Shown: positions 726 to 50,424 of the stretch, in pieces
Layout of the letters: each line of letters opens with the position of its first letter
Numbering within the stretch: the stretch's first letter is position 1
DNA from: a virus
Taxonomy: Duplodnaviria > Heunggongvirae > Uroviricota > Caudoviricetes
Direction: 5' to 3' (one strand)
IMG/VR virus record: IMGVR_UViG_2861038214_000004
DNA length: 51,754 nucleotides
Position numbers and translations under genes: made by a program
The notes under the pieces: model-generated
The model's input: the letters and a program-made list of their open reading frames with translations, nothing else
What the model was told of the DNA's origin: nothing
Databases searched by the model: none

Positions 726-728
726 GCA

Positions 729-3363: not shown

Positions 3364-3374
3364 TCGCAACATAT

Positions 3375-5156: not shown

Positions 5157-5169
5157 AAAAGATTATATA

Positions 5170-9452: not shown

Positions 9453-9461
9453 ATTCACCCC

Positions 9462-9490
9462 ACAAAAAAGCCCGCCTGAACCGGCGGGCT
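9462..9490 (-). terminator. intrinsic terminator between lom and stf (minus strand)
   Basis: agcccgcc / ggcgggct stem, 6-nt loop, followed by TTTTTT on the minus strand. Confidence 0.5.
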
Positions 9491-9516
9491 GTCATAACAC
9501 TGTGTTACCTGGCTAA

Positions 9517-10116
9517 TCAGAATTTATAACCGACACCCACGATGAAACCGTCAGTGCGCCAGTCGCCACTGCCGGAGCCTTCATAAGCAATATCAATGGC
9601 CACGGATTCGGTCGGGTTAAACTGCACGCCAGCCCCCCACGCCAGAGACGTGTTGCTGTGGCGACCGTCATCACTTCCGGTCAGCACGTCGTGCGTTTTC
9701 CCCTTGTTGTCAGTTACGCGGAGATAATCCCCGGAGAAAGTCGACACACGGCTGTAAGCCACACCCGCCATCGCATACGCGCTGAACCATTCATTCACGC
9801 GCACAGACGGCCCCGCCATTACGCTGAACCAGCGGTTACGAACGGAATCTTCATGCCAGCGGGTATCGCTGTAACGGGTAAGCTGGCGATTCTTGTCTCC
9901 TGCATAGCTGAATGACGTCACCAGCCCCAGTGTGTCCGTAAACTCATAACGGTATTTCACGTTAATCCCGTTCAGATCATCGCTGCCGGGAACGTTGGTC
10001 CGGGCATGAAGATACCCCGCGCTCAGCGTGGACTGATGTTCAGATGCCCATGCAGGCGCACCGGATACGGCCAGACAAATGGCTGCGGACAAAATGGCGG
10101 CATAAAGTTTACGCAT
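9517..10116 (-). CDS. lom: outer membrane protein Lom (Ail/Lom family)
   Basis: 199-aa ORF; C-terminal half near-identical to lambda Lom (…[26 protein letters not shown]), signal peptide present. Confidence 0.9.
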
Positions 10117-10185
10117 AATTACCTCTCGCTTTTCTGCAATAAAAAAGGCACCATTTCTGGTGCCCTTATATGGGTTATAACAACT

Positions 10186-13100
10186 TCAACGAATACTGAT
10201 GCCGGAAGCAGCTTTTTTGGTCACAATCACCGTACAGTCGGTGATATTACCTGCCCACTGATTGCCTTTATGGAAAACCTTAAACTCCAGAGTGACGCTT
10301 CCCCTGCCACTCGGCATATCAATAACCGCACTGTAGCTACCGGGAATGGCCCCTTTAGTTTCTCTGGATGCGATTAATACACCGTTTTTGCGAACTTCAA
10401 AACCATAACCCGTGTATCTTGTACCTCCCGGGTTATTACCACTTCCCGGATCGCTATACGCTATTCCGTTAAAGATAATGGGCGGAATAATGATTTGACG
10501 GTCAAAGTTATGATCATCGCTGATGGTGACTGTAACCGTCCCGTCTGGTGTTTCCGTGTTACCCCACGTACCAGCCTGTTTCGGAAATGATTTGGATACA
10601 GCTTTAACGAAGTCACCTCTGACCTGAGTCGCCTCCAGCATGCCCTTAATCGTACAGTTTTCATTTACCGTGACATTGTTGAGCGTCCCGGCGTTCGCAT
10701 TCACACTGCCACTGATATCCGCATTTTTAGCGGTCAGCTTTCCGTCCGGTGTCAGGGAAAATGCCGGTGGATTTCCACCGCTGGTAATGGTGGGGGCCGT
10801 CAGGCGTTTCAGGAACACGTCGTTCATGAATATCTGATCGCCCTGACCAACAAACATCGGTTTTGTGTTGCCATTCGCAGGATTAACCATCGCAATCCTG
10901 TCCGCCGCCAGCAGCACCTGACTCTGCATGCCGTCAGGGGTGTTCTCAATACCGGCACCAATACCCGCGATATAAAGGCGTCCGTCCTGCATCTGCTGCA
11001 GCTTCACAGCCCACATGCTGTTCAGGTTATTATTTGTATCAACCTGAACCTTCTGTATCTGCTGAATTGCCGCACTCTGGTCTTCCAGTTTCTTATTGAC
11101 GGTCTGCGTGATTTCATTGCTGACATCCGTAATGGACGTCCTGATTTCAGCCAGGTCAGGCGCAAGCTGACCGTTATCAATCTGCGTCCACAGCTCCTGA
11201 GCCAGATGGGTTTTCCCTATCTCGCCTTTGAAAAAATCCAGATAGCCGGATGCATCATCGCTCGCCCGACCGACGGCCTCCACAAATGCCGATTTGCCTA
11301 CGGTGTTCACACTGCGGATATAAAAGTAATAATCATGGCCCGGTTTGATATTGATACTGGCGGCTATCCAGTACAGCGCCGTACCAAGATAGCGGGCTGT
11401 GGTTTCAACCTGCCTGATATCCGCAATCCGCTTTTCCGAGAACCAGAACTCAAACTGTACCGTCGGATCATAAACCGCAAGATGCGGCGTGGCGGTTATC
11501 TGAAAATAGCCCGGCGTCAGCTCAATCCGCGACGGCGCTGCCGGTGCGGCGATCCGGAACAATACCGATGCCGGATCGCCCTGCTGTCCCCATGCATTTA
11601 CCGCCCGGACTGTCAGCCTGTAATTTCCCAGCGCCAGCTGCGTGAAGCGATATGTGGTTTCCGTCGTCCGGGCCGTGCTGACCAGCCGCTCACTGCCGTC
11701 GTCCGCTGCCACGGTCAGGCGAAGCATAAAGCTCACCCCCTTCACCACCTTCGGCGTGTCCCAGCGCGCCAGCACCTGGTATTCCCCGCTGTCTGCGGTG
11801 ACTTCTGCGGTCAGGTGCTGAACTGCTGGCGGCGTGACACCATTCACCGTGCCGCTCTGGTCACCGTCAAAGTGCGCCCCGTTATCCACGATGGCTTCTT
11901 TCTCCGGTACATGCTGCACGGCAGTGATGGCATACGTACCGTCATCGTTCTCACGGATACTCACACAGCGGAACAGGCGCTGACGCAGCGTCGGCAGCTT
12001 CAGCCCCCACACGCTGTACTCGGCAACGCCGTCAGGAACCCGGCTCACTTTCACCTTCACGCCGTCGGTGACGGACTGGACCTCCACGCTCACCGGATTA
12101 CCCTGCCCGTCAACCAGGCTTATCAGCGTGGTGCCGGAGGATGGCAGCGTGATTTCACGGTCGAGCGTCAGTGTCCGCGTCTGGCTGTTCACCGCCAGCA
12201 CGCGCCCGCCGGTGCTGATCCCCGCATAGTCATCATCACAGATTTCAATGACATCACCTGGTACATGGCGAAGCCCTTCGGCACCCACGCTGAAGTCCAC
12301 GGTCTGCGTTTCCAGCAGTTCTGTTTTAATCAGCCACAGCCCGGCGCGGTGCGCCTGCCCCCGACTGGTACAGCCAAACGCATCCATCTTCGTGACGTTA
12401 CGACCGTAACGGGCAATGGCCTGCGAGTCCTCCACAAGCTCTGTTGCCGTCTCCCAGCCGTTATCCGGGTCAATCCAGTTCACTTCAACGGCATTATGGC
12501 GGTCTTTCAGGGCGCTGAAGCTGTAGCGGAATGGTGCGCCATCATCCGGCATCACCACATTACTGCGGTTATAGGTCCACACCTTATCCGACGGTCGGTC
12601 CTGCACGAACGTCAGCGTCTGCCCGTTCCATACCGGCATACAGCGCATCGCCGAGCAGAAATCACTGAGCACATCCCACGCCTTGCGCTGTGTGGTCAGG
12701 TACGCATTACAGGTGATGCGCGGCTCCGTGCCGCCAAAGCCGTCCGGCACCGACTGGTCGCAATTCTGGCCGATGACATACAGCGCCCATTTATCCACAT
12801 CTGCCGCACCAAGACGTTTCCCCATGCCGTAGCGCGGGTGGGTCAGCATATCCCACAGACACCAGGCCATGTTGTTGCTGTATGCCGGTTTAAACGTTCC
12901 GTCCCAGATACCGCTGTATTGCCGCGTCTGCGGGTTATAATTCGACGGCACCTGCAGAATACGCCCGCGCAGATGATAATTACGGCTCACCTGCTGGCTG
13001 CCGAACTGCTCCGAATCCACCTGCACGCCGACCAGTGCCGTGTTCGGGTAGCACTGTTTCACATCGATGATTTCGGTGTATGACGACCAGAGCGTTTTGT

Positions 13101-13683
13101 TCTGCAGCTGGTCTGTGGTGCTGTCCGGCGTCATTCTGCGCATCCGGATATTAAACGGGCGCGGCGGCAGGTTATCCACCACCACCGAGGCCAGATACTG
13201 CGAGGTGGTTTTGCCCTTAATGGTGATGTCTTTTTCCGTCACCCAGCCACCGTTACGTTGTATCTGAACCAGCAGGCGGACTTCCGATGGATTCCGGTCC
13301 CCCTTTGAGGTGGTTTCCACCAGTGCCTGCACGCCGAAGGTAAAACGCAGACGGTCAATGTTTGCCGACGTGATGGTCCGGGTGATCGGCGTGTCATATT
13401 TCACTTCTGTACCGAGCACCGTCTCGGAGCCGGAGGATTCAAATCCCTCCGGCGGTGTCTGCTCCTGCTCACCGGCCCGGAACACCACCGTGACGCCGGA
13501 TATATTGGTATTCCCCTCACTGTCCAGCACCGGCGTACTGTTCAGCAGCACGCTTTTTAATCCATCCACCGGACCTTCAACCGGCCCTTCGCTGATGGCA
13601 TCGATCACACTCAGCAGCTGCGTGGACTTCAGGTTGTCCTTCGCTTCGCGCGGGGTATGCCCCTTACTGCTGCCTTTACCCAT
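10186..13683 (-). CDS. J: tail tip / host-specificity protein J; C-terminal receptor-binding region differs from lambda J
   Basis: 1165-aa ORF, first ~800 aa near-identical to lambda J from recall; last ~160 aa unlike the lambda LamB-binding domain. Confidence 0.9.
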
Positions 13684-13743
13684 TCGTCACGCTCCATAAA
13701 CGACAAAACCGCCCGCAGGCGGTTTCACATAAAATGTTTTGCA

Positions 13744-14391
13744 TCAGCGACCAATCACCACAACCTGACCACCATCCCCTTCGTCTGCCGTGCTGATCTC
13801 CTGAGAAACCACACGTGATCCCACGCGCATTTCCCCGTACAGAACAGGCAGAACATTGCCCTGGGCAACCATGTTATCCAGTGACGAGAAATACGTGTTC
13901 TGTTTGCCGTTATCTGTACTGGCTGCCGTGGGCGTCCTGGCTTTCGGTGCCAGCATCTGCGCCACACCACCCAGGATCATACTGGCCCCTGCTGCATACA
14001 GACCCGATACAGCCGCGGCCCCCAGCCAGCCAACAGGGTTCCACCATGCCACCGCAATCAGCGCCGCACCCAGCACCGCCTGAAACACACCGCCACTTTT
14101 GGCACCCGCCAGACGCGGAACGACGTGGATCACGGCACCATTTGCCAGCGGTTCATTAAGACGGGCAGATAATTCATTTTCGCCTGCATCACGCCCGGAA
14201 ATGCGCACCTGATACCAGCCCTCATTCAGTTTCTGGCGAAACGACGGAAGCTGTGTGGCCAGCGCCCGGATGGCTTCAGCCCCCGTTTTCACACGAAGGT
14301 CGATGCGGCGGCCAAATCGTTGTAAATCCCCGTAAAGGCAGATGCGTGCCATGCCCGGTGACGCCAGAGGGAGTGTGTGCGTCGCTGCCAT
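13744..14391 (-). CDS. I: tail assembly protein I
   Basis: Matches lambda I from recall; 103-nt overlap with K as in lambda. Confidence 0.9.
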   Translation of the reverse strand: MAATHTLPLASPGMARICLYGDLQRFGRRIDLRVKTGAEAIRALATQLPSFRQKLNEGWYQVRISGRDAGENELSARLNEPLANGAVIHVVPRLAGAKSGGVFQAVLGAALIAVAWWNPVGWLGAAAVSGLYAAGASMILGGVAQMLAPKARTPTAASTDNGKQNTYFSSLDNMVAQGNVLPVLYGEMRVGSRVVSQEISTADEGDGGQVVVIGR

Positions 14392-15032
14392 TTGTCGGTA
14401 TACCTCTCTCGTTTGCTCAGTTGTTCAGGAATATGGTGCAGCAGCTCGCCGTCACCACAGTAAATGGCGGCATGATTCGGCACCGATGAACCAAAGCAGC
14501 ACAGCAGCACGTCGCCAGGCTGCGCCTCTGTCAGTGCGACACGGTAAAAACCAGTCGCCTCCATATTGTCAAGATAGAGATTCTGACCGTGACGCCACCA
14601 GTCATCCCCGCGATGAAAATCCGGCATCTCAATCCCCGCCAGATGATAAGCATCCCGGAACAGCGTGTAACAGTCCGTCACCCCGTGCTCAAAACGCCGC
14701 CCGGTGAGATGCGGCACACAGCGGAACTTATGAATCGTCCCCCGGCAGACCAGCCACCACGGCAAATCACTCTGCACCTGCAGCCGCCGGTCGGCCTCAC
14801 TCAGCCAGGGCAGACCACCGGGGTGGCTGTGGACCAGTGCCACAATCTCACCCTGCATTTCTGCCTGCAGCCAGTCCTCCGGCGACATACGGAAATACGC
14901 CTCCGGCTCACCGGAGATATTCACGCAGGGGAAATATCTTTCCCCCTCCGGCGTGCTTACCACGAAGCCGCACGACTCCGCTGGCGCACATCGCCGGGCG
15001 TGCGCCAGAATCGCTGATTCTGTCTGTGTCAT
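14289..15032 (-). CDS. K: tail assembly protein K (MPN/JAB and NlpC/P60-like domains)
   Basis: Lambda K-like sequence with HSHPGG motif; full ORF 247 aa, classical lambda K annotation is shorter so the start is uncertain. Confidence 0.8.
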   Translation of the reverse strand: MTQTESAILAHARRCAPAESCGFVVSTPEGERYFPCVNISGEPEAYFRMSPEDWLQAEMQGEIVALVHSHPGGLPWLSEADRRLQVQSDLPWWLVCRGTIHKFRCVPHLTGRRFEHGVTDCYTLFRDAYHLAGIEMPDFHRGDDWWRHGQNLYLDNMEATGFYRVALTEAQPGDVLLCCFGSSVPNHAAIYCGDGELLHHIPEQLSKRERYTDKWQRRTHSLWRHRAWHASAFTGIYNDLAAASTFV

Positions 15033-15037
15033 GGGAT

Positions 15038-15736
15038 TTACTGCGAAAGTTTGTTAATGGAAAGGAAGCCGCCAAAGTTGCCGACGTTATTGCGAAACTT
15101 ACAGCCACTCAGGCATTTGCTGCATTTATCCTTCGTGATATCGGACGTTGGCTGGTCATATTCATCCGCGACCGCCGGACCGTGATAACCGCACTCATCG
15201 CCGCGATAGGTCCAGGTGCAGGTGTTGGCCAGCATGATACGTCCCGGAAAAACAGCGCCATCTGTTTCCGTCGGCGTGGACAGTACAAAGGAGGCACTCA
15301 CCGCGCTCAGTTCGCTGCACTGCTCGATGCGCCAGCGGCTGATCACCTCCTGCTCCGGATCGGCGTCACTGTTTCCGTTGACGAAGTTCACCGCATCCAG
15401 AAAACGGGCGTAAACCTTACGCCGGACCACCGTTCCGCCGACCAGACTCTGCAGATCTTCCGCCATCCCGGTGACCATACCGTACAGGTTAGAAACCGTC
15501 AGCGTGGGGCGCGTACTGGTGCCTTTGCCATTCAGTTCAAAACCACTCCCCTGAATGGGATACGGCTGATACTGTCGCCCCTGCCAGGTGACCGGCTCAC
15601 CTTTTTCGTTCTGCTCATTACAGAAAAAATAACGTTCTCCACCGACCTCTGTCAGGTCGATTTCCCAGAGCACCACGCTGGCCGACTGCTCCGCACGGGT
15701 GCATTCATTCAGTGTTTCCTGCCGGATATCCTGCAT
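15038..15736 (-). CDS. L: minor tail protein L
   Basis: 232 aa, matches lambda L. Confidence 0.9.
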   Translation of the reverse strand: MQDIRQETLNECTRAEQSASVVLWEIDLTEVGGERYFFCNEQNEKGEPVTWQGRQYQPYPIQGSGFELNGKGTSTRPTLTVSNLYGMVTGMAEDLQSLVGGTVVRRKVYARFLDAVNFVNGNSDADPEQEVISRWRIEQCSELSAVSASFVLSTPTETDGAVFPGRIMLANTCTWTYRGDECGYHGPAVADEYDQPTSDITKDKCSKCLSGCKFRNNVGNFGGFLSINKLSQ

Positions 15737-16065
15737 CAGTTCACCACCTGTTCAAACTCTGCGCTGAACTCAACACGCAGCATACTGACCCGCGACGACC
15801 ATTTTGCGCAGGTCACCTTTATCTGCCGCCACTCATAAGGCGGCGTCCACAGAAAGGCTTTCCAGCCCCCGTGCTCAGCCAGAAACGACTCAAGCGCCGT
15901 GGCCTCCCAACGGGGAACAGAAAGCGTCACGCTGTACGTTTTCAGGTCGGCATTCAGCCCGGCAGGCGCTCGCTGAGAATAGCCATCACCAAAGCGCACC
16001 TTTCTTACGGAAGGGGCCGAAGCCACATCCATACCGGGTTTCACTTTCCAGCGGAAGGTTTTCAT
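15736..16065 (-). CDS. M: minor tail protein M
   Basis: 109 aa, matches lambda M. Confidence 0.9.
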   Translation of the reverse strand: MKTFRWKVKPGMDVASAPSVRKVRFGDGYSQRAPAGLNADLKTYSVTLSVPRWEATALESFLAEHGGWKAFLWTPPYEWRQIKVTCAKWSSRVSMLRVEFSAEFEQVVN

Positions 16066-18623
16066 CGTCCACCTCCGGAGAACAGACCACCATCGCGCAT
16101 CTGCCCGGTCACAACATCCATTGCCGCCTTACGGGCTACGTCATAAACCGCCTTCAGCGCCTGTGGCCCTATCTGACCGTTCGTGCCGTCGTTGTTAATC
16201 ACCACATGGTTATTCTGCTCAAACGTCCCGGACGCCTGCGACCGGCTGTCTGCCATGCTGCCCGGTGTACCGACATAACCGCCGGTGGCATAGCCGCGCA
16301 TCAGCCGGTAAAGATTCCCCACGCCAATCCGGCTGGTTGCCTCCTTCGTGAAGACAAATTCACCACGGTGAACAATCCCCGCTGGCTCATATTTGCCGCC
16401 GGTTCCCGTAAATCCTCCGGTTGCAAAATGGAATTTCGCCGCAGCGGCCTGAATGGCTGTACCGCCTGACGCGGATGCGCCGCCACCAACAGCCCCGCCA
16501 ATGGCGCTGCCGATACTCCCGACAATCCCCACCATTGCCTGCTTAAGCAGAATTTCTGTCATCATGGACAGCACGGAGCGGGTGAAGCTGCGCCAGTTCT
16601 GTTCACTGCCGGTCAGCATCGCCGCCATATTCTGCGCAATACCATCAAAGGTCTGCGTGGCTGCACTTTTAACCTGCGACATACTGTCCGTGGCGCTCTC
16701 TTCCCACTCACTCCAGCCGGACCTGAGGCCTGCCATCCAGCTCCCGCGAAGCTGGTCTTCAGCCGCCCAGGTCTTTTTCTGCTCTGACATGACGTTATTC
16801 AGCGCCAGCGGATTATCGCCATACTGTTCCTTCAGGCGCTGTTCTGTGGCTTCCCGCGCTGCCTGCCGGTCAGTCAGCCCCCGGTTTTTCGCCTCAATGG
16901 CTGCCCGTTTTGCCCGTTGTTGCTGTGCGAACTTATCCGCCTGCTGCGCCAGCGCATTCAGGTGCTCCTGATACGTAACCTTGTCGCCAAGTGCAGCCAG
17001 CTGGCGTTTGTACTCCAGCGTCTCATCTTTATGCGCCAGCAGGGATTTCTCCTGTGCGGACAGCTGGCGACGTTGTGCCGCCTCCTCCAGTACCGCGAAC
17101 TGACTTTCTGCCTTCCACAAATCCCGGCGCTGCTGGCTGATTTTCTCATTCGCTCCGGCATGCTTCTCCAGCGTCCGGAGTTCTGTCTGAAGCATCAGCA
17201 GGGCAGCATGAGCACTGTCTTCCTGACGATCGCCCGCAGACACCTTCACGCCGGACTGTTTCGGCTTTTTCAGCGTCGCTTCATAATCCTTTTTCGCCGC
17301 CGCCATCAGCGTGTTGTAATCTGCCTGCAGAATTTTCCCGTCTTTCAGTGCCTTGTTCAGTTCTTCCTGACGGGCGGTATATTTCTCCAGCGGCGTCTGC
17401 AGCCGTTCGTAAGCCTTCTGCGCCTCTTCGGTATATTTCAGCCGTGACGCTTCGGTATCGCTCTGCTGCTGCGCATTTTTGTCCTGTTGAGTCTGCTGCT
17501 CAGCCTTCTTTCTCGCTGCTTCAAGCGCAAGACGGGCCTTTTCACGATCATCCCAGTAACGCGCCCGCGCTTCATCGTTAACAAAATAATCATCCTTGCG
17601 CAGATTCCAGATGTCGTCTGCTTTCTTAAACGCAGCCTCTGCCTTAATCAGCATCTCCTGCGCGGTATCAGGACGACCAATATCCAGCACCGCATCCCAC
17701 ATGGATTTGAATGCCCGCGCTGTCCTGTCTGCCCAGGTCTCCAGCGTGCCCATGTTCTCTTTCAGGCGGCGGGTCTGGTCATCAAACCCTTTCGTTGCGG
17801 CCTCGTTCGCCGCCTGCAATGCCCCGGCCTCATCGCCGGAACGCTGCAACTGAGCAACATACGCAATCTGCTCCGCCGTCACGTTATGGAACTGGCGTGC
17901 CATCGCTGTCAGCCCTGACGTCGGGTCTGTGGTCAGCTTCCCGAAGGCTTCAGCGACCTTGTCCACCTCCACGCCGGATGCAGAGGAGAAACGCGCCACA
18001 CTCTGGCTGATGGACGCAATCTGAGCCTCACCGCTTACCCCCGCCTTAACCAGTGCGCTGAGTGACTCGCTGGTCTGGTCAAACGTCAGCCCTGCCGCCT
18101 GCCCGGCTCTGGACAGGACCAGCATGCGATCTGCCGTCAGCCCCGACTGATTGCCGGAAAGGACCAGCGTTTTGTTGAAATCGGACAGGGTTGAGTTGCC
18201 CTGATACCAGGCATACGCCAGCGCACCGGTCGCCACCGCCAGCGAGGTGGCCCCGACCATCGGCAGGGTGAGCGCACCGGCAAGCCCCCTGAACATGGGG
18301 ATCATCCCGCCGAAGGAGTCCTTCACCTGACCACCCTGTTGCAGCAGGATCAGCCACGGACTTTGCCCGCCTGCAAGCTGCGTGGCCACGTCAGTGAACT
18401 GCGCAGGCAGCATACGCATGGCAGCTTTATACTGCCCGACGGAAATCCCCGCTTTCTGTGCAGCCAGTGCCTGTCGGCTCAGCGACTGTTCAACGACTGC
18501 CGCTGTTTTTTTCGCATCACTTTCCGTACCGGAAAAATGACGCCTGACTCTGGCCATCTGCTCGTCAAATCTGGCCGCATCCAGACTCAAATCAACGACC
18601 AGATCGCCTACCGGTTCAGCCAT
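16062..18623 (-). CDS. H: tail tape measure protein H
   Basis: 853 aa, same length as and matching lambda H. Confidence 0.9.
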   Translation of the reverse strand: MAEPVGDLVVDLSLDAARFDEQMARVRRHFSGTESDAKKTAAVVEQSLSRQALAAQKAGISVGQYKAAMRMLPAQFTDVATQLAGGQSPWLILLQQGGQVKDSFGGMIPMFRGLAGALTLPMVGATSLAVATGALAYAWYQGNSTLSDFNKTLVLSGNQSGLTADRMLVLSRAGQAAGLTFDQTSESLSALVKAGVSGEAQIASISQSVARFSSASGVEVDKVAEAFGKLTTDPTSGLTAMARQFHNVTAEQIAYVAQLQRSGDEAGALQAANEAATKGFDDQTRRLKENMGTLETWADRTARAFKSMWDAVLDIGRPDTAQEMLIKAEAAFKKADDIWNLRKDDYFVNDEARARYWDDREKARLALEAARKKAEQQTQQDKNAQQQSDTEASRLKYTEEAQKAYERLQTPLEKYTARQEELNKALKDGKILQADYNTLMAAAKKDYEATLKKPKQSGVKVSAGDRQEDSAHAALLMLQTELRTLEKHAGANEKISQQRRDLWKAESQFAVLEEAAQRRQLSAQEKSLLAHKDETLEYKRQLAALGDKVTYQEHLNALAQQADKFAQQQRAKRAAIEAKNRGLTDRQAAREATEQRLKEQYGDNPLALNNVMSEQKKTWAAEDQLRGSWMAGLRSGWSEWEESATDSMSQVKSAATQTFDGIAQNMAAMLTGSEQNWRSFTRSVLSMMTEILLKQAMVGIVGSIGSAIGGAVGGGASASGGTAIQAAAAKFHFATGGFTGTGGKYEPAGIVHRGEFVFTKEATSRIGVGNLYRLMRGYATGGYVGTPGSMADSRSQASGTFEQNNHVVINNDGTNGQIGPQALKAVYDVARKAAMDVVTGQMRDGGLFSGGGR

Positions 18624-19056
18624 ACCGGACTCCTCCTGCGATCCCTTCTGATACTGTCATCAGCATTACGTCATCCTCCGTCATGTCCGCCACATCCGGG
18701 GAAACGGGGATAACTTCATTCACATCCGGGCCAAAGCGGACGCCTCCGGCAAGCCCTGCCGCTTTCTGCATCAGCACATCATCTTCAGGCTCTTCGTCAG
18801 CCTCACGCCGGTTCAGCAGACTGAAATCCAGCGGATGCATATCCGGATCGCTGAAAAACAGGCTGAGCACGGTGTACGTCAGCCCGGAAAAGTGCATATC
18901 CAGCAGAACATCATGAAAATAATGGGTACTGTAAAAGCGGTGCCAGTCGGCATACTCCGTGGATGACATCCCGGCAAGCATGGCACGCCAGTCGGGTCGC
19001 CCCATCTCTCGCGCCAGTTTCAGGGCAAAACTCAGCTCACCATCGAACACTTTCCC
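18616..19056 (-). CDS. T: T portion of the G-T tail assembly chaperone, made by programmed -1 frameshift from G
   Basis: ORF in -1 frame relative to G begins at the slippery site; translation KVFDGELSFALK continues from G residues ...SAGK. Confidence 0.8.
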   Translation of the reverse strand, partial: GKVFDGELSFALKLAREMGRPDWRAMLAGMSSTEYADWHRFYSTHYFHDVLLDMHFSGLTYTVLSLFFSDPDMHPLDFSLLNRREADEEPEDDVLMQKAAGLAGGVRFGPDVNEVIPVSPDVADMTEDDVMLMTVSEGIAGGVRYG

Positions 19057-19454
19057 GCAGAAACAGGCTCTGCAGGCCCGGCGTCCTCTGTCTGTTCAGG
19101 AGCATCATTCACCACAAACTCATACATACCGGACAGCCGGTACACCACGTTTTCAGCATGAGAAATTGCCTCCGTGGGCCAGGTGGTAAGCACTTCCTGC
19201 TCAATCTGTTTAACGGCTTCATTCATGGAAGGCAGCTTTGTCTTCTGCGGATGGTTATGCCACAGGGACATCGCCACCACAAAAGCGCCGGTTCTGATGG
19301 CGTCTTCCACAGTAAACTTCCGGTTGCTGTCTGACTCCGCCTGTTCTGCCTGTCGTTTCATCAGGGCGAGATGCTCAATACGCTGCAGGGCTGACAGTTC
19401 AGAAAGCGTGACGGTCACACCGTTATGTTCAAATGATTCGGTTTTCAGGAACAT
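19032..19454 (-). CDS. G: tail assembly chaperone G
   Basis: 140 aa, matches lambda G. Confidence 0.9.
   Translation of the reverse strand: MFLKTESFEHNGVTVTLSELSALQRIEHLALMKRQAEQAESDSNRKFTVEDAIRTGAFVVAMSLWHNHPQKTKLPSMNEAVKQIEQEVLTTWPTEAISHAENVVYRLSGMYEFVVNDAPEQTEDAGPAEPVSAGKCSMVS
19050..19056 (-). promoter_or_regulatory. G GGA AAG slippery heptamer for -1 ribosomal frameshift (G to G-T)
   Basis: Heptamer found on minus strand in zero-frame register GCG GGA AAG near the 3' end of G, as in lambda. Confidence 0.8.
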
Positions 19455-19469
19455 CTCTGACTCCCCGGA

Positions 19470-20210
19470 TTAACTGGCGGTGACGGTGATTTCTGCAACC
19501 GCAGCAAGTTCACCATTACCGGATACGACCGGAATGTTGACCTTGCCTGCAGCAACACCTTTCACGGTGATGGTCATACCACTGACCGACACGGTGGCTT
19601 TTGTTTTATCCGCAGACACCGCACGGAAGCTCTTGTCGGTTGCGCCTTCCGGCTGGAATGCCACGGTCAGCGTCGTGCTCTGCCCTTTCACCACCGAGGT
19701 GCTGGCAGGCGTCACGGTCATGCCGGTTGCCGCTGTTACCGTGCTGCGATCTTCTGCCATCGACGGACGTCCTACGTTGGTGACTTTCACCGTGCGGGTA
19801 ATCACTTCCTTCGCCGTCACCGCCTTACCGATACTGCTGACCCAGCCGCGGAACACATCGACCGTGCCGTTCGGGAAGCGGATTTTATAGGCACGGGTAT
19901 CACCTTCATTAAACCACGCCAGCAGCGCCTGCTGCCCCTGCTCTCCGGGCATCCACGCCAGCGTGAAGCTGGTATCTCCGGCAGATTTCTGCCCCTGCCC
20001 GGTCGCAGTCCAGTCTGCATCTTCATCATCGAGATAGCTGTCGTCATAGGACTCAGCGGTCAGTTCGCCGGGCGTCAGGTCTTTAACTTTTGCCAGACGC
20101 GACCAGTCAACGTCTGAAAGCGGGTTCGCATAAGGGTCACCGCTCCCCTTATAAACCCACAGGGTGGTCCCGGCACCTTTCACCGGCATTACAGGATTTG
20201 GTACAGGCAT
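19470..20210 (-). CDS. V: major tail protein V
   Basis: Matches lambda V from MPVPNP... ; start set at that Met (track ORF starts 10 codons upstream). Confidence 0.9.
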
Positions 20211-23085: not shown

Positions 23086-23418
23086 TTAAACGATGCTGAT
23101 TGCCGTTCCGGCAAACGCGGTCCGTTTTTTCGTCTCGTCGCTGGCAGCCTCCGGCCAGAGCACATCCTCATAACGGAACGTGCCGGACTTGTAGAACGTC
23201 AGCGTGGTGCTGGTCTGGTCAGCAGCAACCGCAAGAATGCCAACGGCAGCACCGTCGGTGGTGCCATCCCACGCAACCAGCTTACGGCTGGAGGTGTCCA
23301 GCATCAGCGGGGTCATTGCAGGCGCTTTCGCACTCAATCCGCCGGGCGCGGTTGCGGTATGAGCCGGGTCACTGTTGCCCAGCGGCTGGTAATGGGTAAA
23401 GGTTTCTTTGCTCGTCAT
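23086..23418 (-). CDS. D: head decoration protein D
   Basis: Matches lambda D from [12 protein letters not shown]. Confidence 0.9.
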
Positions 23419-23427
23419 AAACATCCC

Positions 23428-24033
23428 TTACACTGGTGTGTTCAGCAAATCGTTAACGGCATCAGATGCCGGGTTACCTGCAGCCAGCGGTGCCGGTGCC
23501 CCCTGCATCAGACGATCCAGCGCAGTGTCACTGCGCGCCTGTGCACTCTGTGGTGCTGCGGCCAGAATGCGGCGGGCCGTTTCCACGGTCATACCGGGGG
23601 TTTCTGCCAGCACGCGTGCCTGTTCTTCGCGTCCGTGAGCCTCCTCACAGTTGAGGATCCCCATAATGCGGCTGTTTTCTGCCGCAACCGCTGCGGTGAT
23701 CTGCGCGTTCACGTCCGGCTGCGCCGCGCTGGCGTTTTCGCCCTCCGTCGCTGGCACCACGTCAGTAACGTCAGCCTGCGAAGCAGTGGCTGAAACAGTT
23801 GTTGATTGAGTCTCTTTGGTCATTCGCCCTCCTGAGAGACGGGATTTACGTGCATCCAGTGCATCACGCATAACGGTGATCGCATCGGTGCTGTTGACAA
23901 GTTCATCAGCCAGTCCGGCATCAATGGCCTCCTGACCGCTGTACACTGCAGCCTCGGTATCCAGCACAGCCTGCACGGACAGGCCGGTATATGCCGACAC
24001 CTTCTGTGCAAACATCCGGCGGGTTGCATCCAT
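23428..24033 (-). CDS. nu3: scaffolding protein Nu3 (in-frame internal start within C)
   Basis: Internal Met (MDATRRMF) 201 codons from the C stop, as in lambda nested C/Nu3 arrangement. Confidence 0.6.
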   Translation of the reverse strand: MDATRRMFAQKVSAYTGLSVQAVLDTEAAVYSGQEAIDAGLADELVNSTDAITVMRDALDARKSRLSGGRMTKETQSTTVSATASQADVTDVVPATEGENASAAQPDVNAQITAAVAAENSRIMGILNCEEAHGREEQARVLAETPGMTVETARRILAAAPQSAQARSDTALDRLMQGAPAPLAAGNPASDAVNDLLNTPV

Positions 24034-24727
24034 CCGGGACTGCAATGTTTCCCGGACATCATCCGGTAGATGGCTGTAGGGGTTGCCATCCACCTTATGG
24101 CTGCCGCTGTAAATCAGCGTGATTTCCACGCCCTGTTTCTCCAGTGCAGCGCCGTAATTACTGTGAGCCATCATGACGCCGATGGAGCCTGTCCGGGCGG
24201 TCTGCGTGACCAGACGCCGGGAGGCGGCACTGGCAAGCAGCTGACCTGCGCTGCAGTTCATGTCATTGGCCAGCGCCCATACCGGCTTTATGTCACGCAC
24301 ACGGGCGATGATGTCAGCGCAGTCAAATGCCCCCGCCACCATCCCGCCGGGCGTGTCCATATCGAGCAGAATGCCGTCCACCATCGGATCGCTGGCAGCC
24401 TGTTGCAGACGGGCGATAATGCCGTTGTAACCGGTCATCCCCGAGTACGGCTGCAGCGCCCGCGTCCGGCTGACCAGCGTGCCGGACACCGGCAGCACGG
24501 CGATGCCGTTCATGACCTGATAACTGCGGGCCTGTCGTGGTCCGTCATCATCACCGGATAATGCCAGCGTCGCGAGTGCCTCCTGGGCAGTCAGGCTGTC
24601 GCCGGACACCGCATCCATCAGGCGGCTGATCCCAAGCTGGCCTGCAAGCGCACAAAAGAAAACCCGCGCATAGGCGGGTTCAAGCATCAGCGGCTCATTA
24701 AAAGCCATGCTGGCAATATGCGGGAGA

Positions 24728-24747
<20 letters not shown>
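23428..24747 (-). CDS. C: capsid assembly protease C; apparent GTG start
   Basis: 439 aa matching lambda C; first codon here is GTG preceded by AGGAGG; overlaps B 3' end. Confidence 0.85.
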
Positions 24748-28428
<3,681 letters not shown>

Positions 28429-28454
<26 letters not shown>

Positions 28455-28974
28455 TCAGCAACCCCGGTATCAGTTCATCCAGCGCGGCTGCTTTGTTCAT
28501 GGCTTTGATGATATCCCGTTTCAGGAAATCAACATGTCGGTTTTCCAGTTCCGGAAAACGCCGCTGCACCGACAGGGGGATCCCGTCGAGAATACTGGCA
28601 ATTTCACCTGCGATCCGCGACAGCACGAAAGAACAGAATGCGGTTTCCACCACTTCAGCGGAGTCTCTGGCATTTTTCAGCTCCTGTGCGTCGGCCTGCG
28701 CACGCGTAAGTCGATGGCGTTCGTACTCAATAGTCCCTGGCTGGAGATCTGTCTCGCTGGCCTGTCGCAGTTCTTCAACCTCCCGGCGCAGCTTTTCGTT
28801 CTCAATTTCAGCATCCCTTTCGGCATACCATTTTATGACGGCGGCAGAGTCATAAAGCACCTCATTACCCTTCCCACCGCCTCGCAGAACGGGCATTCCC
28901 TGCTCCTGCCAGTTCTGAATGGTACGGATACTCGCACCGAAAATGTCAGCCAGCTGCTTTTTGTTGACTTCCAT
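28429..28974 (-). CDS. nu1: terminase small subunit Nu1
   Basis: 181 aa, matches lambda Nu1; 26-nt overlap with A as in lambda. Confidence 0.95.
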
Positions 28975-29151
28975 TGTTCATTCCACGGATAAAAACAGAG
29001 AAAGGAAACGACAGAGGCCAAAAAGCCCGTTTTCAGCACCTGTCGCTTCCTTTCTTTTCAGAGGGTATTTTAAATAAAAACATTAAGTTATGACGAAGAA
29101 GAACGGAAACGCCTTAAACCGGAAAATTTTCATAAATAGCGAAAACCCGCG
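28975..29151. promoter_or_regulatory. cosB region (terminase/IHF binding) between cosN and Nu1
   Basis: Sequence is the reverse complement of the lambda left-end leader as recalled. Confidence 0.6.
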
Positions 29152-29163
29152 AGGTCGCCGCCC
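29152..29163. promoter_or_regulatory. cos: cosN: 12-nt cohesive end sequence (rc of GGGCGGCGACCT)
   Basis: aggtcgccgccc found ~190 nt upstream of Nu1 start; flanks match lambda left and right end sequences. Confidence 0.85.
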
Positions 29164-29362
29164 CGTAAACTGTCGGATCGCCGGAAAGGACCCGCAAAAT
29201 GATAATAATTATCATCTACATGTCACAACGTGCATCTACGCCATCAAACCACGTCAAATAATCAATTATGACGCAGGTATCGTATTAATTGATCTGCATC
29301 AACTTAACGTAAAAACAACTTCAGACAATACAAATCAGTGACACTGAATACAGGGCAACCTC

Positions 29363-29596
29363 ATGTCAACGAAGAACAGAACCCGCAGAACAACAACCCG
29401 CAACATCCGCTTTCCTAACCCAATGATTGAACAAATTAACATCGCTCTTGATCAAAAAGGGTCTGGGAATTTCTCAGCCTGGGTCATTGAAGCCTGCCGC
29501 CGAAGACTGTGCTCAGAAAAAAGAGTTTCGCCTGAAGCAAACAAAGAAAAGAGTGACATTACTGAATTGCTCAGAAAGCAGGTCAGACCAGATTGA
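29363..29596 (+). CDS. small protein homologous to the lambda right-end ORF (YlcI/DUF3950-like, putative ribbon-helix-helix)
   Basis: MSTKNRTRRTTTRNIRFPN...FSAWVIEACRRRL matches my recollection of the lambda cos-proximal ORF; C-terminus differs. Confidence 0.6.
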   Translation: MSTKNRTRRTTTRNIRFPNPMIEQINIALDQKGSGNFSAWVIEACRRRLCSEKRVSPEANKEKSDITELLRKQVRPD

Positions 29597-29638
29597 AGCA
29601 ATTTAGATAATCGTGCAGACTAGGTACCCTCATATCAC

Positions 29639-30064
29639 ATGGAAGGTACTACAATGGCTCAGGTTGCCATTTTTAAACAAATATTCGATAAAGTGCGAAA
29701 TAATTTAAACTATCACTGGTTTTATTCTGAACTAAAACGTCACAATGTCTCACATTACATTTACTATTTAGCCACAGAGAATATTCATCTTGTTCTTGAA
29801 AACGATAATACGGTTTTAATAAAAGGACAGGGTAAGGTTGTAAATGTAAGATTTTCAAAAAATAAATGCCTTATAGAAGCCACCTTAAAAGGATTCAAAT
29901 CAGGAGAGTTATCATTTTACGAATACAGGAAAAATCTTGCTACAGCAGGGGTTTTCAGATGGATTACAAATATCCACGAAAACAAAAGGTATTACTATAC
30001 CTTTGATAATTCATTACTCTTTACTGAGAACATTCAGAACACTACACAAATATTTCCGCACTAA
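29639..30064 (+). CDS. protein homologous to the lambda right-end ORF of unknown function (YbcV/DUF1398-like)
   Basis: MAQVAIFK...[22 protein letters not shown] resembles the lambda gene upstream of bor as recalled. Confidence 0.55.
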
Positions 30065-30555
30065 ATCATAACGTCCGGTTTCTTCCGTGCCAGAACCGGA
30101 CTCGCTGGCATGATGAAATATGTGTACCCGGTAACCCCGGTGTGCATCGTTTTTGATTATTCCCGCACACTCGCGCAGAAGGAGTTCCCCGTCGGGCTAC
30201 GGTCTCTGTTAATACGGGAATACGGCGACGATACAGCGCATGATGTGTCAGGCTTGAATACCTTTATCCTTTAAAAGGGATATCAGTTAAGTTATCCCGT
30301 GTAGGGTATAAGCCATTATCAAAGCCACTCTGTAGGAAGTGGCTTTTGTAATGGCAATAAAAAGCCCCGCGAATGCGAGGCTAAATCCTGGTATTTGTAA
30401 TGACTGGCTCTTATCTCAACGCAGCCCCTTACCGCGCGCAAAATGCTCAATATCAAGCATCAGCAATGAGATGTTTAATCTGGATTCACTCCAGAAGTGA
30501 GCACCACCCTGTCTACAGAGCCAGATGTGAAGGATGATGAGTAAAATTATCGCTA

Positions 30556-31023
30556 TCATCGAAGGCATTGCGTCCTGATGTATTCCTGAAGCGTTCTCAG
30601 TGCTGTTTGGTCGCGGATAATTCCGTCCCGGATACCGAGAACGTTTCGTCCAGCAACTGGAGAGAGTTCGACGGTGGCATCATTGCCCATGCCGGAGGCG
30701 CTGGAGGTTTCGGCTGAGGATGGCACAGGGCATTTTCCTTTGACGAGCACCCGACCCCCATTATCAAGCTTGCGCCGAAGAGCATCATTTTCAGCTTTCG
30801 CATCAGCTAACTCCTTCGTGTATTTATCATCGAGTGCATCAGCATCACGCTGGCGCTGCTGCATGTCAGTAATGGTGGCGTTCGCCTTCTCCAGTTCACT
30901 GGCCTTGTTATCGCGCTGTTCTTTGTAGGCGATTGCATTATCACGGTAATGATTAACAGCCCATGACAGGCAGACGATGATGCAGATAACCAGAGCGGAG
31001 ATAATCGCAGTTACCCTGCTCAT
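30556..31023 (-). CDS. Rz: spanin inner-membrane subunit Rz
   Basis: N-terminal TM and coiled-coil region match lambda Rz; C-terminal third differs; ATGA overlap with R stop. Confidence 0.85.
30597..30803 (-). CDS. Rz1: spanin outer-membrane lipoprotein Rz1, embedded in the +1 frame of Rz
   Basis: Embedded ORF with lipobox-like GVGCSS and proline-rich [11 protein letters not shown]; exact start uncertain. Confidence 0.7.
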
Positions 31024-31517
31024 TGTTGCCCCCACAAACAGACCTCACGCTCAATCTCACGACGAGTCATGAGACCTTTCCATTGCTTACCGCCAGCATA
31101 TGTCCAGCGACGTAGCTGATCACATGCGCCTTTGATATCGCCCTGGTTTATTTTGCGAAGAAGCGTCGATGTTCTGAAATTGCCAGCACCCACGTTGTAA
31201 ACGAATGAGTAAAGAGCGCCGCGCGTTGTTTCCGGTATATCGACTTTGATGTACGGGTTAATTTGTCTGGCGACAGTGGCAAGGTCTTTATTCAAGAGTG
31301 CTTTGCATTCTGCTTTGGTATACGTTTTACCGAGCATGATGTCTTTTCCTGTATGCCCGTGACATACAGTCCATACACCAACAATATCTTTGTATGGTAT
31401 GTAGCTGACACCCTCCAGACCATCGTTACCACTTGAGCCAGTGATTAACACTGATGCTATAGCAATTGCTCCGCCACCAATAGCAGCAGCAACGGCTTTT
31501 CGTAATGATGGAGGCAT
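31020..31517 (-). CDS. R: SAR endolysin (phage-21-type true lysozyme), not lambda R transglycosylase
   Basis: N-terminal Gly/Ala-rich signal-anchor-release segment ([20 protein letters not shown]) followed by T4-lysozyme-like fold motifs; resembles R21 from recall. Confidence 0.85.
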
Positions 31518-31732
31518 TATTCACCTCTCGCAGCCTTGCGCTTATCTTCTTTAATCTTGAAATAAAGGTTTGTCAGGTACGTCAGCAGGCCAAATACCAA
31601 GCTACCCAGCACACCTATTGCTGCCCACTGTGAGGGCGTGACTTTATCTAGCAGCTGTAAAAACCAGTACCCGGCACTACCTGCTGAGGTGCCATAGGCG
31701 ACACCCGTTGTTAACTTATCCATGGATTTCAT
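31517..31732 (-). CDS. S: pinholin (phage-21 S21-type), dual-start motif MKSM
   Basis: 71 aa with two TM segments, resembles S21 from recall. Confidence 0.85.
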
Positions 31733-31836
31733 AACCCCACCTCGCAGACAAAGCGGGTGTAAATTGAGGGAATACTACGAAACGTAACAGACTCGGAGTC
31801 AGTGAATAACTCAGGTATTGGGTTATCAGCTAATAT

Positions 31837-31877
31837 CGAGACTCAAAAAATGGAAAAACCCGCTCGACGGCGGGTTT
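31837..31877 (-). terminator. intrinsic terminator ~105 nt upstream of S on the late strand (possible tR'-type)
   Basis: aaacccgc / gcgggttt hairpin followed by TTTTTCCATTTTTT on the minus strand. Confidence 0.45.
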
Positions 31878-32436
31878 AAGCTGTGTGACGAAGTAACCAC
31901 TCTTAACAGCATAACCAATTTTTTACGTACGTAAACCACTAAATGATATTTGCGAGAATGCTACCGAGTATTGAAAACACCACTACAAATACATAAGCAA
32001 ATCCCAACAAATAACCAACAAATAATTTCCAGTGTTATTTTTAGCCGATTTAAATTGAACCTTCAAATTATAGAGCACTTATAAATAACAACCGTTAATA
32101 TAAATTGGCTAATAGATTTATTTTTATTCAGCCAAGAGCTATGAATAGGATTCGATAGAAAAAAGTTCAGATAAAAATAGAGATCTACTTCACAAATCAA
32201 ACGAGAAACCAAAACTTACATCTTGAAATAATCACATTGATTAGATGAATATTTATCGCGCAGTGACATCATTTTTTAATAATAGTTCAAAAAAAAGGGC
32301 TCACGATGAAAAAATTAACAGTGGCAATTTCTGCTGTAGCTGCATCAGTACTGATGGCGATGTCTGCTCAGGCAGCTGAAATTTATAATAAAGACAGTAA
32401 CAAGCTGGATCTGTACGGGAAAGTTAATGCTAAGCA

Positions 32437-33765
32437 CTGAGAGATCCCCTCATAATTTCCCCAAAGCGTAACCATGTGTGAATAAATTTTGAGCTAGTAG
32501 GGTTGCAGCCACGAGTAAGTCTTCCCTTGTTATTGTGTAGCCAGAATGCCGCAAAACTTCCATGCCTAAGCGAACTGTTGAGAGTACGTTTCGATTTCTG
32601 ACTGTGTTAGCCTGGAAGTGCTTGTCCCAACCTTGTTTCTGAGCATGAACGCCCGCAAGCCAACATGTTAGTTGAAGCATCAGGGCGATTAGCAGCATGA
32701 TATCAAAACGCTCTGAGCTGCTCGTTCGGCTATGGCGTAGGCCTAGTCCGTAGGCAGGACTTTTCAAGTCTCGGAAGGTTTCTTCAATCTGCATTCGCTT
32801 CGAATAGATATTAACAAGTTGTTTGGGTGTTCGAATTTCAACAGGTAAGTTAGTTGCTAGAATCCATGGCTCCTTTGCCGACGCTGAGTAGATTTTAGGT
32901 GACGGGTGGTGACAATGAGTCCGTGTCGAGCGCTGATTTTTTCGGCCTTTAGAGCGAGATTTATACAATAGAATTTGGCATGAGATTGGATTGCTTTTAG
33001 TCAGCCTCTTATAGCCTAAAGTCTTTGAGTGACTAGATGACATATCATGTAAGTTGCTGATAGGTTTCCAGTTTTCCGCTCCTAGGTCTGCATATTGTAC
33101 TTTTCCTCTTACTCGACTTAACCAGTACCAACCCAGCTTCTCAACGGATTTATACCATGGCACTTTAAAGCCAGCATCACTGACAATGAGCGGTGTGGTG
33201 TTACTCGGTAGAATGCTCGCAAGGTCGGCTAGAAATTGGTCATGAGCTTTCTTTGAACATTGCTCTGAAAGCGGGAACGCTTTCTCATAAAGAGTAACAG
33301 AACGACCGTGTAGTGCGACTGAAGCTCGCAATACCATAAGCCGTTTTTGCTCACGGATATCAGACCAGTCAACAAGTACAATGGGCATCGTATTGCCCGA
33401 ACAGATAAAGCTAGCATGCCAACGGTATACAGCGAGTCGCTCTTTGTGGAGGTGACGATTACCTAACAATCGGTCGATTCGTTTGATGTTATGTTTTGTT
33501 CTCGCTTTGGTTGGCAGGTTACGGCCAAGTTCGGTAAGAGTGAGAGTTTTACAGTCAAGTAATGCGTGGCAAGCCAACGTTAAGCTGTTGAGTCGTTTTA
33601 AGTGTAATTCGGGGCAGAATTGGTAAAGAGAGTCGTGTAAAATATCGAGTTCGCACATCTTGTTGTCTGATTATTGATTTTTCGCGAAACCATTTGATCA
33701 TATGACAAGATGTGTATCCACCTTAACTTAATGATTTTTACCAAAATCATTAGGGGATTCATCAG
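32437..33765 (-). mobile_element. IS10: IS10 insertion sequence, 1329 bp, with 9-bp target duplication TGCTAAGCA (32428..32436 and 33766..33774)
   Basis: Ends CTGAGAGATCCCC (inside end) and rc of CTGATGAATCCCC (outside end) recognised; transposase ORF inside; TSD matches the IS10 hotspot NGCTNAGCN. Confidence 0.9.
32450..33658 (-). CDS. IS10 transposase
   Basis: 402-aa ORF beginning MCELDILHDSLYQ, recalled as Tn10/IS10 transposase. Confidence 0.9.
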   Translation of the reverse strand: MCELDILHDSLYQFCPELHLKRLNSLTLACHALLDCKTLTLTELGRNLPTKARTKHNIKRIDRLLGNRHLHKERLAVYRWHASFICSGNTMPIVLVDWSDIREQKRLMVLRASVALHGRSVTLYEKAFPLSEQCSKKAHDQFLADLASILPSNTTPLIVSDAGFKVPWYKSVEKLGWYWLSRVRGKVQYADLGAENWKPISNLHDMSSSHSKTLGYKRLTKSNPISCQILLYKSRSKGRKNQRSTRTHCHHPSPKIYSASAKEPWILATNLPVEIRTPKQLVNIYSKRMQIEETFRDLKSPAYGLGLRHSRTSSSERFDIMLLIALMLQLTCWLAGVHAQKQGWDKHFQANTVRNRNVLSTVRLGMEVLRHSGYTITREDLLVAATLLAQNLFTHGYALGKL

Positions 33766-34914
33766 TGCTAAGCACTACTTCTCCTCTAATGATGCAGATG
33801 ATGGTGATACTACTTATGCCCGTCTTGGCTTCAAAGGTGAAACCCAAATCAACGATCAACTGACTGGTTTCGGTCAGTGGGAATATGAATTCAAAGGCAA
33901 CCGCGCTGAATCTCAAGGTTCCTCCAAAGATAAAACCCGTCTTGCCTTCGCTGGCCTGAAATTCGGTGACTACGGCTCAATCGATTACGGCCGTAACTAC
34001 GGTGTAGCATACGACATCGGTGCGTGGACTGACGTTCTGCCAGAATTCGGTGGCGATACCTGGACCCAAACAGATGTATTCATGACTGGTCGCACCACAG
34101 GTGTTGCAACTTATCGTAACAACGACTTCTTTGGTCTGGTTGATGGCCTGAACTTTGCAGCTCAGTATCAGGGCAAAAATGACCGAAATGAAGTAACTGA
34201 AGCTAATGGCGATGGTTTCGGTTTCTCAACTACTTATGAGTATGAAGGATTCGGCGTGGGTGCAACCTATGCTAAATCTGATCGCACTAATAATCAGGTT
34301 ATCTACGGTAACAACGGTCTGAATGCTTCTGGTCAAAATGCTGAAGTATGGGCAGCTGGTCTGAAATATGATGCGAACAACATCTATCTGGCCACCACCT
34401 ATTCTGAAACCCAGAACATGACTGTTTTTGGTAATAACCATATTGCCAACAAAGCACAAAACTTCGAAGCTGTTGCACAATATCAGTTCGACTTCGGCCT
34501 GCGTCCATCCGTTGCTTACCTGCATTCTAAAGGAAAAGACTTGGGTGTTTGGGGTGATCAGGACCTGGTTGAATATGTTGATGTAGGTGCAACCTATTAC
34601 TTCAACAAAAATATGTCCACTTTTGTTGACTACAAAATCAACCTGATTGATAAGAGCGATTTCACGAAAGCATCTGGCGTTGCTACCGATGATATCGTTG
34701 CTGTAGGTATGGTTTACCAGTTCTAATTTGATTACTAAAAGATATGTTGTGGGAGGCTTTGCCTCCCCAACATATAAGTGGCTCCCTCAAGCCACTTCCT
34801 TTAGAAGCACAACCTTGCTTCTAACTATATAAACCTTCTGTTATATATTACCCTTTATTTTTGGGGGCGTTTCAACGCCCCATTTTTAATAACTTTTAGT
34901 AAATAATTGGCGTA

Positions 34915-50409: not shown

Positions 50410-50424
50410 TTAGTATAAAAAAGC
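50410..50424. repeat. attL: att common core on the attL side (TTAGTATAAAAAAGC)
   Basis: Exact 15-bp core identical to 567..581, with P'-arm on the int side and host sequence on the ybhC side. Confidence 0.85.

Follow-up and report, generated by a model that had tools for sequence, protein, structure and literature searches.

A complete IS10 interrupts the porin gene of a lambda-like prophage at a consensus site that IS10 has hit repeatedly

We analysed a 51,754-nt stretch of Caudoviricetes DNA (IMG/VR record IMGVR_UViG_2861038214_000004; hereafter the window), which matches the chromosome of Escherichia coli WI1, a clinical isolate from France that carries KPC-3. In this window, the porin gene of a lambda-like prophage is interrupted by the insertion sequence (IS) IS10. 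Almost certainly, a solo, full-length IS10 of the IS10-Right type inserted recently and by its normal route into the sole consensus target of an NmpC/Lc-type prophage porin gene, and this target is a natural hotspot for the element. No evidence that we found contradicts the core of this reading. The element, its mechanism and insertion at codon 44 (in two single cases) are already known, and the recurrence of the insertion is a modest addition to them.

A complete IS10 flanked by a perfect target duplication

The element is exactly 1329 bp long, and both of its ends match those of IS10 with 0 mismatches, based on reading of the sequence and on scripted checks (Table 1). A preliminary description of the window had reported an element of this length with IS10-type ends and a 402-amino-acid transposase. 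All of this is borne out, the transposase having been read as an open reading frame (ORF). The IS10 end motif occurs just twice in the 51.7-kb window, at 32437 and 33765, compared to 0 occurrences expected from shuffled sequences. The same scan found no further IS10 end in the window, which makes this a solo element.

The 9-bp sequence TGCTAAGCA is present on both sides of IS10 in two identical copies that match the target consensus NGCTNAGCN. The flanking duplication and its fit to the consensus, both previously described, therefore hold on re-examination. A repeat finder reports an 11-nt direct repeat with a spacing of 1338 bp around IS10. The two additional bases come from a CT at the start of IS10 that is matched by a CT in the continuing porin gene; with the boundaries set by the known IS10 termini, the duplication measures 9 bp. 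The GCTNAGC core is found 14 times in the window compared to 13.5 expected by chance, and the consensus match by itself is therefore unremarkable. What is significant is that the match is placed exactly at the 9-bp duplication bounded by IS10 ends. The porin gene contains a single GCTNAGC site, which is the insertion site; elsewhere in the same prophage, GCTAAGC occurs at window positions 36090 and 38760.

Alignment to IS10-Right of Tn10 (the copy beside tetD on plasmid NR1) gives 1328 identical positions out of 1329 (99.92%), which excludes that the element differs substantially from IS10. By comparison, 13 bases differ from IS10-Left of NR1. The single difference from IS10-Right, at window position 32863, leads to V266I in the transposase. 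The same residue is also found in IS10-Left of NR1 and in many identical IS10 copies, and IS10-Right copies beside tetD on several other plasmids are 100% identical to the window element. V266I is a conservative substitution.

The transposase matches PF01609 (DDE_Tnp_1) with an E value of 1.5e-24, and all of its catalytic residues are present (Table 1). The antisense RNA-OUT is matched over its full length by Rfam family RF00240 (98.8 bits for a gathering score of 41, E value 1.6e-20) and runs toward the outside end, that is, toward the porin 3′ part. Only two GATC sites are found within the element, at bp 67-70 and bp 1320-1323. IS10 is known to have its two Dam-regulated sites at exactly these places, the first being that of the methylation-sensitive transposase promoter pIN. 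As far as a sequence can tell, the element carries all the defining features of IS10, and the NCBI label ‘ISVsa5 family’ is a naming matter.

Table 1. Features of the interrupted porin gene, its IS10 and the surrounding prophage (window coordinates)
Feature	Position	Strand	Details
IS10, complete, IS10-Right type (NCBI name: ISVsa5 family)	32437-33765	-	1329 bp; inside end left, outside end right
9-bp target-site duplication, left copy TGCTAAGCA	32428-32436	.	matches NGCTNAGCN
9-bp target-site duplication, right copy TGCTAAGCA	33766-33774	.	scripted check
IS10 inside-end terminal repeat CTGAGAGATCCCCTCATAATTT	32437-32458	+	includes Dam site GATC 32443-32446 (IS10 bp 1320-1323)
IS10 outside-end terminal repeat CTGATGAATCCCCTAATGATTT	33744-33765	-	right end of the element is its reverse complement
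IS10 transposase gene	32450-33658	-	402 amino acids; DDE_Tnp_1; D97, D161, E292; V266I compared with NR1 IS10-Right
RNA-OUT antisense RNA	33651-33720	+	Rfam RF00240; IS10 bp 115 to 46
Dam site GATC, IS10 bp 67-70	33696-33699	.	sequence scan
Porin 5′ fragment	32306-32436	+	codons 1-43 and the first 2 nt of codon 44; encodes the signal peptide and 21 mature residues
Porin 3′ part	33775-34726	+	last base of codon 44 to stop; without promoter, start codon or signal peptide
Q-type late antiterminator, QuuD-like	34915-35298	-	annotation
Holin, EssD-like	31517-31732	-	annotation
Lysozyme, RrrD-like	31020-31517	-	annotation
Lambda att core GCTTTTTTATACTAA, one prophage end	568-582	-	sequence scan
Lambda att core, other prophage end, beside int and host ybhC	50410-50424	-	sequence scan

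The insertion creates a null allele of an NmpC/Lc-type porin gene

IS10 is preceded by 131 nt of the porin gene and so falls within codon 44, in agreement with the earlier statement that the ORF is split after codon 43. Deleting the element and one repeat copy in silico restores an uninterrupted porin ORF of 360 amino acids. The restored protein begins with the signal peptide MKKLTVAISAVAASVLMAMSAQA followed by AEIYNK, matches PF00267 (Porin_1) over residues 29-360 (E value 3.6e-152) and shows 100% identity to the porin encoded by ev099 and ev243, which are isolated lambda-like phages. In both the window and WI1 the gene order is QuuD, porin and EssD/RrrD, with the porin gene on the opposite strand. 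Judged by its domain and by this gene order, the porin is a general porin of the NmpC/Lc type associated with lysogenic conversion. The NmpC/Lc porin gene is a lysogenic-conversion gene that is readily inactivated by IS insertion.

In its present state, the 5′ ORF reads to ...VNAKH and then into C+TGA from the IS end, terminating at 32440 after 44 amino acids. IS10 truncates the porin after 43 codons and the result is a null allele. That the insertion silences the phage porin, as had been proposed, is supported by the position of the cut, which follows the signal peptide and only 21 mature residues.

We also considered an ORF of 338 amino acids (33710-34726), whose ATG is inside IS10 and whose reading frame continues into the 3′ part of the porin gene. 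It resembles a transposon-porin fusion that might be expressed from the outward promoter. This ORF was rejected as a real product: its ATG is located within the RNA-OUT stem, a Shine-Dalgarno-like sequence was not seen upstream, and the product would have no signal peptide. It is likely a source of false chimeric gene calls. The WI1 record annotates the porin 5′ piece as a pseudogene fragment. The RefSeq/PGAP names are ‘phosphoporin PhoE’ for the 5′ stub, at 20070-20201 of its fetched locus, and ‘ompC’ for the intact prophage allele, at 6001-7083 of two other fetched loci, both of which mislead for a porin of the NmpC/Lc type.

The insertion is recent

The same prophage with an intact porin and an empty site is found in strain F5, isolated from wastewater in Panama. 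Across window positions 28348-40726 (12.4 kb), F5 shows 0 mismatches apart from IS10 and one copy of the repeat. The BLAST alignments of F5 to the window abut with an overlap of 11 bp, corresponding to the repeat plus CT, and the flanks are colinear; the left flank is identical over 4.1 kb and the right one over 7.0 kb, with no single-nucleotide polymorphism (SNP) in either. A search of the rest of the genome for other IS10 copies, as suggested in the preliminary description, identified 12 IS10 places on the WI1 chromosome, and the copy found in pdeF is identical to that of the window.

Because the empty site of F5 is free of mismatches, the two repeat copies are identical and an identical IS10 is present in pdeF, the data support a relatively recent insertion, as had been suggested. 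The IS10 is most simply derived from a resident copy on the WI1 chromosome. IS10 is thus actively expanding in a KPC-3 clinical lineage of E. coli, and the copy in the window is presumably active.

We assign a negligible probability to a laboratory or assembly artefact, such as a mis-joined repeat or an IS10 hop during cloning. Hopping of IS10 from cloning hosts into cloned DNA is known (Kovarik 2001, cited in PMC11148124). Nonetheless, both junctions recur in the WI1 chromosome, which was deposited independently. The duplication is also perfect, about 12 IS10 copies reside in the strain itself, and equivalent insertions are found in many unrelated assemblies and in metagenomes.

The same porin position is a recurrent IS10 target

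We searched for recurrence of the insertion using IS10 with 200-bp flanks in both orientations; the matched loci were fetched and the IS10 ends located by script. IS10 is found at the same 9-bp porin position in at least 13 other records, and the same junction is present in 2 metagenome contigs. Six of these records have the orientation of the window (LR-64-1, 98203, 2017-03-3CC, 88COLEC, MMC-J-0085 and the phage-plasmid pEC21Z048-103K) and seven have the opposite orientation (BM28 in the K-12 prophage DLP12, 16843, O111:H11 88.0502, 24A16CRGN010, AR_0085, pSvP1_F and p204A1-114K). Strain 88-19539, a sister of O111:H11 88.0502, is also among the matches listed.

The target duplication is TGCTAAGCA, TGCCAAGCA or TGCAGAGCA depending on the porin allele, the IS10 variants are IS10R-like, IS10L-like or mosaic, and the porin 3′ parts of the 13 records are 72-99% identical to that of the window. 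The contexts are equally varied and include prophages at the lambda attachment site (att-lambda), DLP12 at argU, a remnant located between fliE and yedK, an IS-rich island and P1/P7-like plasmids. Because orientation, duplication, IS10 variant and porin allele differ among the records, this position is a recurrent natural hotspot hit independently and in both orientations, a result that the preliminary description had missed. A minimum of 5 independent events is certain from the combinations of orientation and duplication type, and the real number is probably above 10. A junction scan limited to one genome per species gave no match, and in the literature we found no paper describing the porin IS10 site as recurrent.

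The existence of other interrupted alleles raises the question of whether the WI1 allele was imported already interrupted, via recombination with a prophage or with a P1/P7-like plasmid carrying porin::IS10. We consider this highly improbable. Lambdoid prophages often recombine and interrupted porin alleles do occur in other prophages, but the IS10 sequence of the window matches that of no other same-site insertion among the 13, while an identical copy is found in pdeF on the same chromosome. Likewise, the porin 3′ parts of the other interrupted alleles differ by 0.8-28%. Signs of exchange that would fit such an import are a clustered patch of 19 SNPs between the window and the WI1 record and the patch at 26694-28347, the only one in which F5 differs from the window; the porin flanks, by contrast, show zero SNPs relative to the empty-site prophage of F5 over 4.1 kb (left) and 7.0 kb (right). 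Transposition from within the WI1 chromosome into an intact porin gene remains the reading that we prefer.

Two matches were rejected as instances of the same site. The first, HCP5S3_I2 (twin of LCP30S3_I5, which was not fetched), matches with full coverage. Its IS10, at 5070-7152 of the fetched locus, is located about 390 bp further into the porin, beside ...GCTGCTCAGTA, and has no duplication, and a tRNA-Arg together with the integrase of another prophage is found on the far side. This arrangement indicates an IS10-associated deletion or rearrangement. The second, strain ‘numer 3’ (83% coverage), has IS10 at the unrelated target TGCTGTTGC and the porin is absent.

Several further observations concern the matched loci. 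In LR-64-1, the two duplication copies (5192-5200 and 6530-6538 of the fetched locus) differ by one base (TGCTAAGCA and CGCTAAGCA), which points either to a sequencing error or to a base change that followed the insertion. In the 88COLEC chromosome, an mcr-1/PAP2 unit between ISApl1 copies (Tn6330-like; fetched locus 1-4817) is found directly upstream of the IS10-interrupted porin remnant. Other IS10 positions are shared across strains in the search matches, namely araG, a DUF2776 gene, chaA and the lpxC/LysR-regulator region; some of these could reflect common descent and others additional hotspots.

In wild strains, including O111:H11 88.0502, 2017-03-3CC and AR_0085, the porin hotspot is also occupied by solo copies with exactly the sequence of NR1 IS10-Left and by mosaics of IS10-Left and IS10-Right. 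IS10-Left is usually described as poorly active. The presence of these copies points to mobilisation in trans, or else to IS10 copies that frequently recombine or undergo gene conversion with one another.

Target preference explains the recurrence better than selection

Because the sole GCTNAGC of the porin gene takes nearly all of its IS10 insertions, target preference explains the same-site pattern better than selection for porin loss, although selection may add to it. Selection acting as the main driver, through lower permeability under antibiotics or through escape from porin-dependent phages, seems unlikely to us. Such selection would scatter insertions along the gene, whereas 13 of the 14 other IS10-in-porin records examined share with the window the exact 9 bp containing the only GCTNAGC of the gene; even the sole exception, HCP5S3_I2, has a target one mismatch off the consensus. 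The two orientations are about equal in frequency, as predicted for a symmetric target.

Many carriers are multidrug-resistant clinical isolates (for example WI1 with KPC-3, 88COLEC with mcr-1, AR_0085 and 24A16CRGN010), as selection by antibiotics would have it, but IS10 carriers are in any case over-represented among resistant isolates, which confounds the association. Also in favour of selection are the independent inactivation of the homologous K-12 gene by IS5 and the fact that the off-consensus targets TGCCAAGCA and TGCAGAGCA are still hit. On the other hand, a laboratory K-12 line under heat selection was hit at the same codon.

A bolder proposal is that codons 41-44 of NmpC/Lc-type phage porin genes form an unusually strong, evolutionarily conserved IS10 hotspot, and that lambda-like and P1/P7-like phages serve as vehicles of IS10. 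Its basis is that IS10 still inserts there in alleles of only about 70% identity and in those whose consensus is imperfect; we regard the proposal as doubtful. If it were true, temperate phages would regularly gain IS10 at a harmless moron locus, stay packageable (49.8 kb) and spread IS10 between hosts. Recurrent porin loss might then also be favoured in clinical lineages exposed to antibiotics.

Some points qualify the reading of a recent insertion by the normal route into a natural hotspot. Over 39.5 kb, the window and the WI1 RefSeq chromosome are identical save for 19 SNPs clustered at 23203-27384 (4.2 kb, head genes), which suggests that the source is a sister isolate, that the assembly version is another one, or that a patch was recombined between prophages. 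The number of independent events is itself deduced from the differences among records, and gene conversion between IS10 copies could alter the variant after insertion. The recurrence was recorded at the porin site alone. Finally, the window copy is only presumably competent for transposition.

A prophage that would still be packageable

The prophage is located at att-lambda and spans 49,842 bp from core to core; in the absence of the IS, this length would be 48,504 bp. Judged by the capacity of lambda as it is generally known, the longer form would still be within the packaging range, and the prophage is presumably functional. The annotation shows no other obvious lesions in essential prophage genes. 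Two GC-rich hairpins are found between the porin stop and Q (34740-34885), namely GGGGCGTTTCAACGCCCC at 34864-34881 and TGGGAGGCTTTGCCTCCCCA at about 34750-34770; these may act as a porin terminator and/or as a late-operon terminator overridden by Q. A scan for consensus promoters, which was uninformative, did not find a porin promoter and gave no convincing late promoter.

The WI1 assembly also contains a 54.5-kb IncN-type plasmid, pWI1-KPC3, with blaKPC-3 in Tn4401, making the host a carbapenemase producer. Our search of the literature on the WI1/WI2 isolates found nothing relevant.

Proposed mechanism and transcription across IS10

IS10 comes from Tn10. Its transposase excises a double-strand fragment in non-replicative, cut-and-paste transposition and makes 9-bp staggered cuts at symmetric GCTNAGC targets. 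In the present case, IS10 would have been excised from a donor site and inserted via 9-bp staggered cleavage at TGCTAAGCA of the porin gene, leaving a null allele in a prophage at att-lambda of a WI1-like clinical strain. The outside end is the one next to the porin 3′ part, so both the outward promoter and RNA-OUT point into this part of the gene, from which a functional product is not expected.

Late transcripts dependent on Q would run through the porin gene together with the inserted IS10, reading the latter in the transposase sense, before reaching the lysis genes. In such sense read-through RNA, IS10 bp 52-61 are predicted to pair with bp 103-112, covering the AUG at bp 108-110 (predicted fold-back energy -31.7 kcal/mol, z = -3.2). 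This fold-back hairpin would block translation of the transposase from read-through RNA, and the predicted fold agrees with the way in which fold-back is known to protect IS10 from promoters outside it. The prophage would presumably still lyse its host and package its DNA, and could carry IS10 to new hosts.

IS10 alone is a poor marker of Tn10

Of the 5426 complete E. coli genomes, 1967 (36%) contain IS10, which is full-length in 1173. A total of 2422 records contain IS10, compared to roughly 860 with tet(B) at ≥99%. IS10 is far more common than tet(B) and by itself is therefore a poor marker of Tn10. The suggestion that the insertion marks a lineage having carried Tn10/IS10 is accordingly weak as far as IS10 is concerned, with 36% of genomes having the element, but gains from the place counts on the WI1 chromosome: these are 1 for a single-copy prophage segment and 2 for the same segment together with tet(B). 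The WI1 chromosome probably holds tet(B), hence Tn10. The search for Tn10 remnants that had been proposed is thereby answered in part, with tet(B) indicated by the place count and Tn10 not located directly; the KPC-3 plasmid of WI1 contains no Tn10.

Implications

The IS10 insertion explains the pseudogene status of the prophage porin, and two annotation artefacts can be flagged, namely the ‘phosphoporin PhoE’ stub and the spurious 338-amino-acid ORF beginning in IS10. One 9-bp site used repeatedly and in either orientation across diverged phage porin alleles also illustrates cleanly, in nature, how specific IS10 is for its targets. Typing calls for caution in this respect: the same insertion site in different strains need not imply shared ancestry. 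If inducible, the prophage would be a natural phage carrier of IS10. The practical value of these results is limited, as they describe ordinary IS10 behaviour.

Comparison with known systems

The window element resembles IS10-Right of Tn10 (IS4 family) in its length, ends, transposase, RNA-OUT, Dam sites, 9-bp duplication and NGCTNAGCN target. It differs in being solo, outside a composite Tn10, and in the one conservative change V266I. While composite Tn10 consists of two inverted IS10 copies flanking tet(B), the window contains one IS10 whose flanks are contiguous porin sequence.

With respect to the interrupted gene, the nearest counterparts are nmpC::IS5 of the K-12 prophage DLP12 and the Lc porin of phage PA-2, which share the gene family and the position between Q and the lysis genes. 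In DLP12, however, IS5 is near the 3′ end of the gene, whereas here IS10 is near the 5′ end of the porin gene in an otherwise complete prophage.

In BM28, a heat-evolved K-12 strain, nmpC was hit at codon 44 by IS10R (PMC10044804). The 9-bp target is the same (TGCTAAGCA), as is the codon, and the genes are homologous prophage porin genes. Unlike the window, the BM28 insertion has the opposite orientation, is located in the defective DLP12 whose nmpC already has IS5, differs in its IS10R at 3 nt and arose in the laboratory from a resident Tn10.

Finally, nmpC::IS10 with the direct repeat TGCTCTGCA has been described for pSvP1 (PMC6906374). This and the other P1/P7-like phage-plasmids, pEC21Z048-103K and p204A1-114K, share with the window the codon position, a porin homologue of a temperate phage and a 9-bp duplication. 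They differ in having a porin of only about 70% identity and the target TGCAGAGCA, one mismatch away from the consensus, and in that the prophage is a plasmid.

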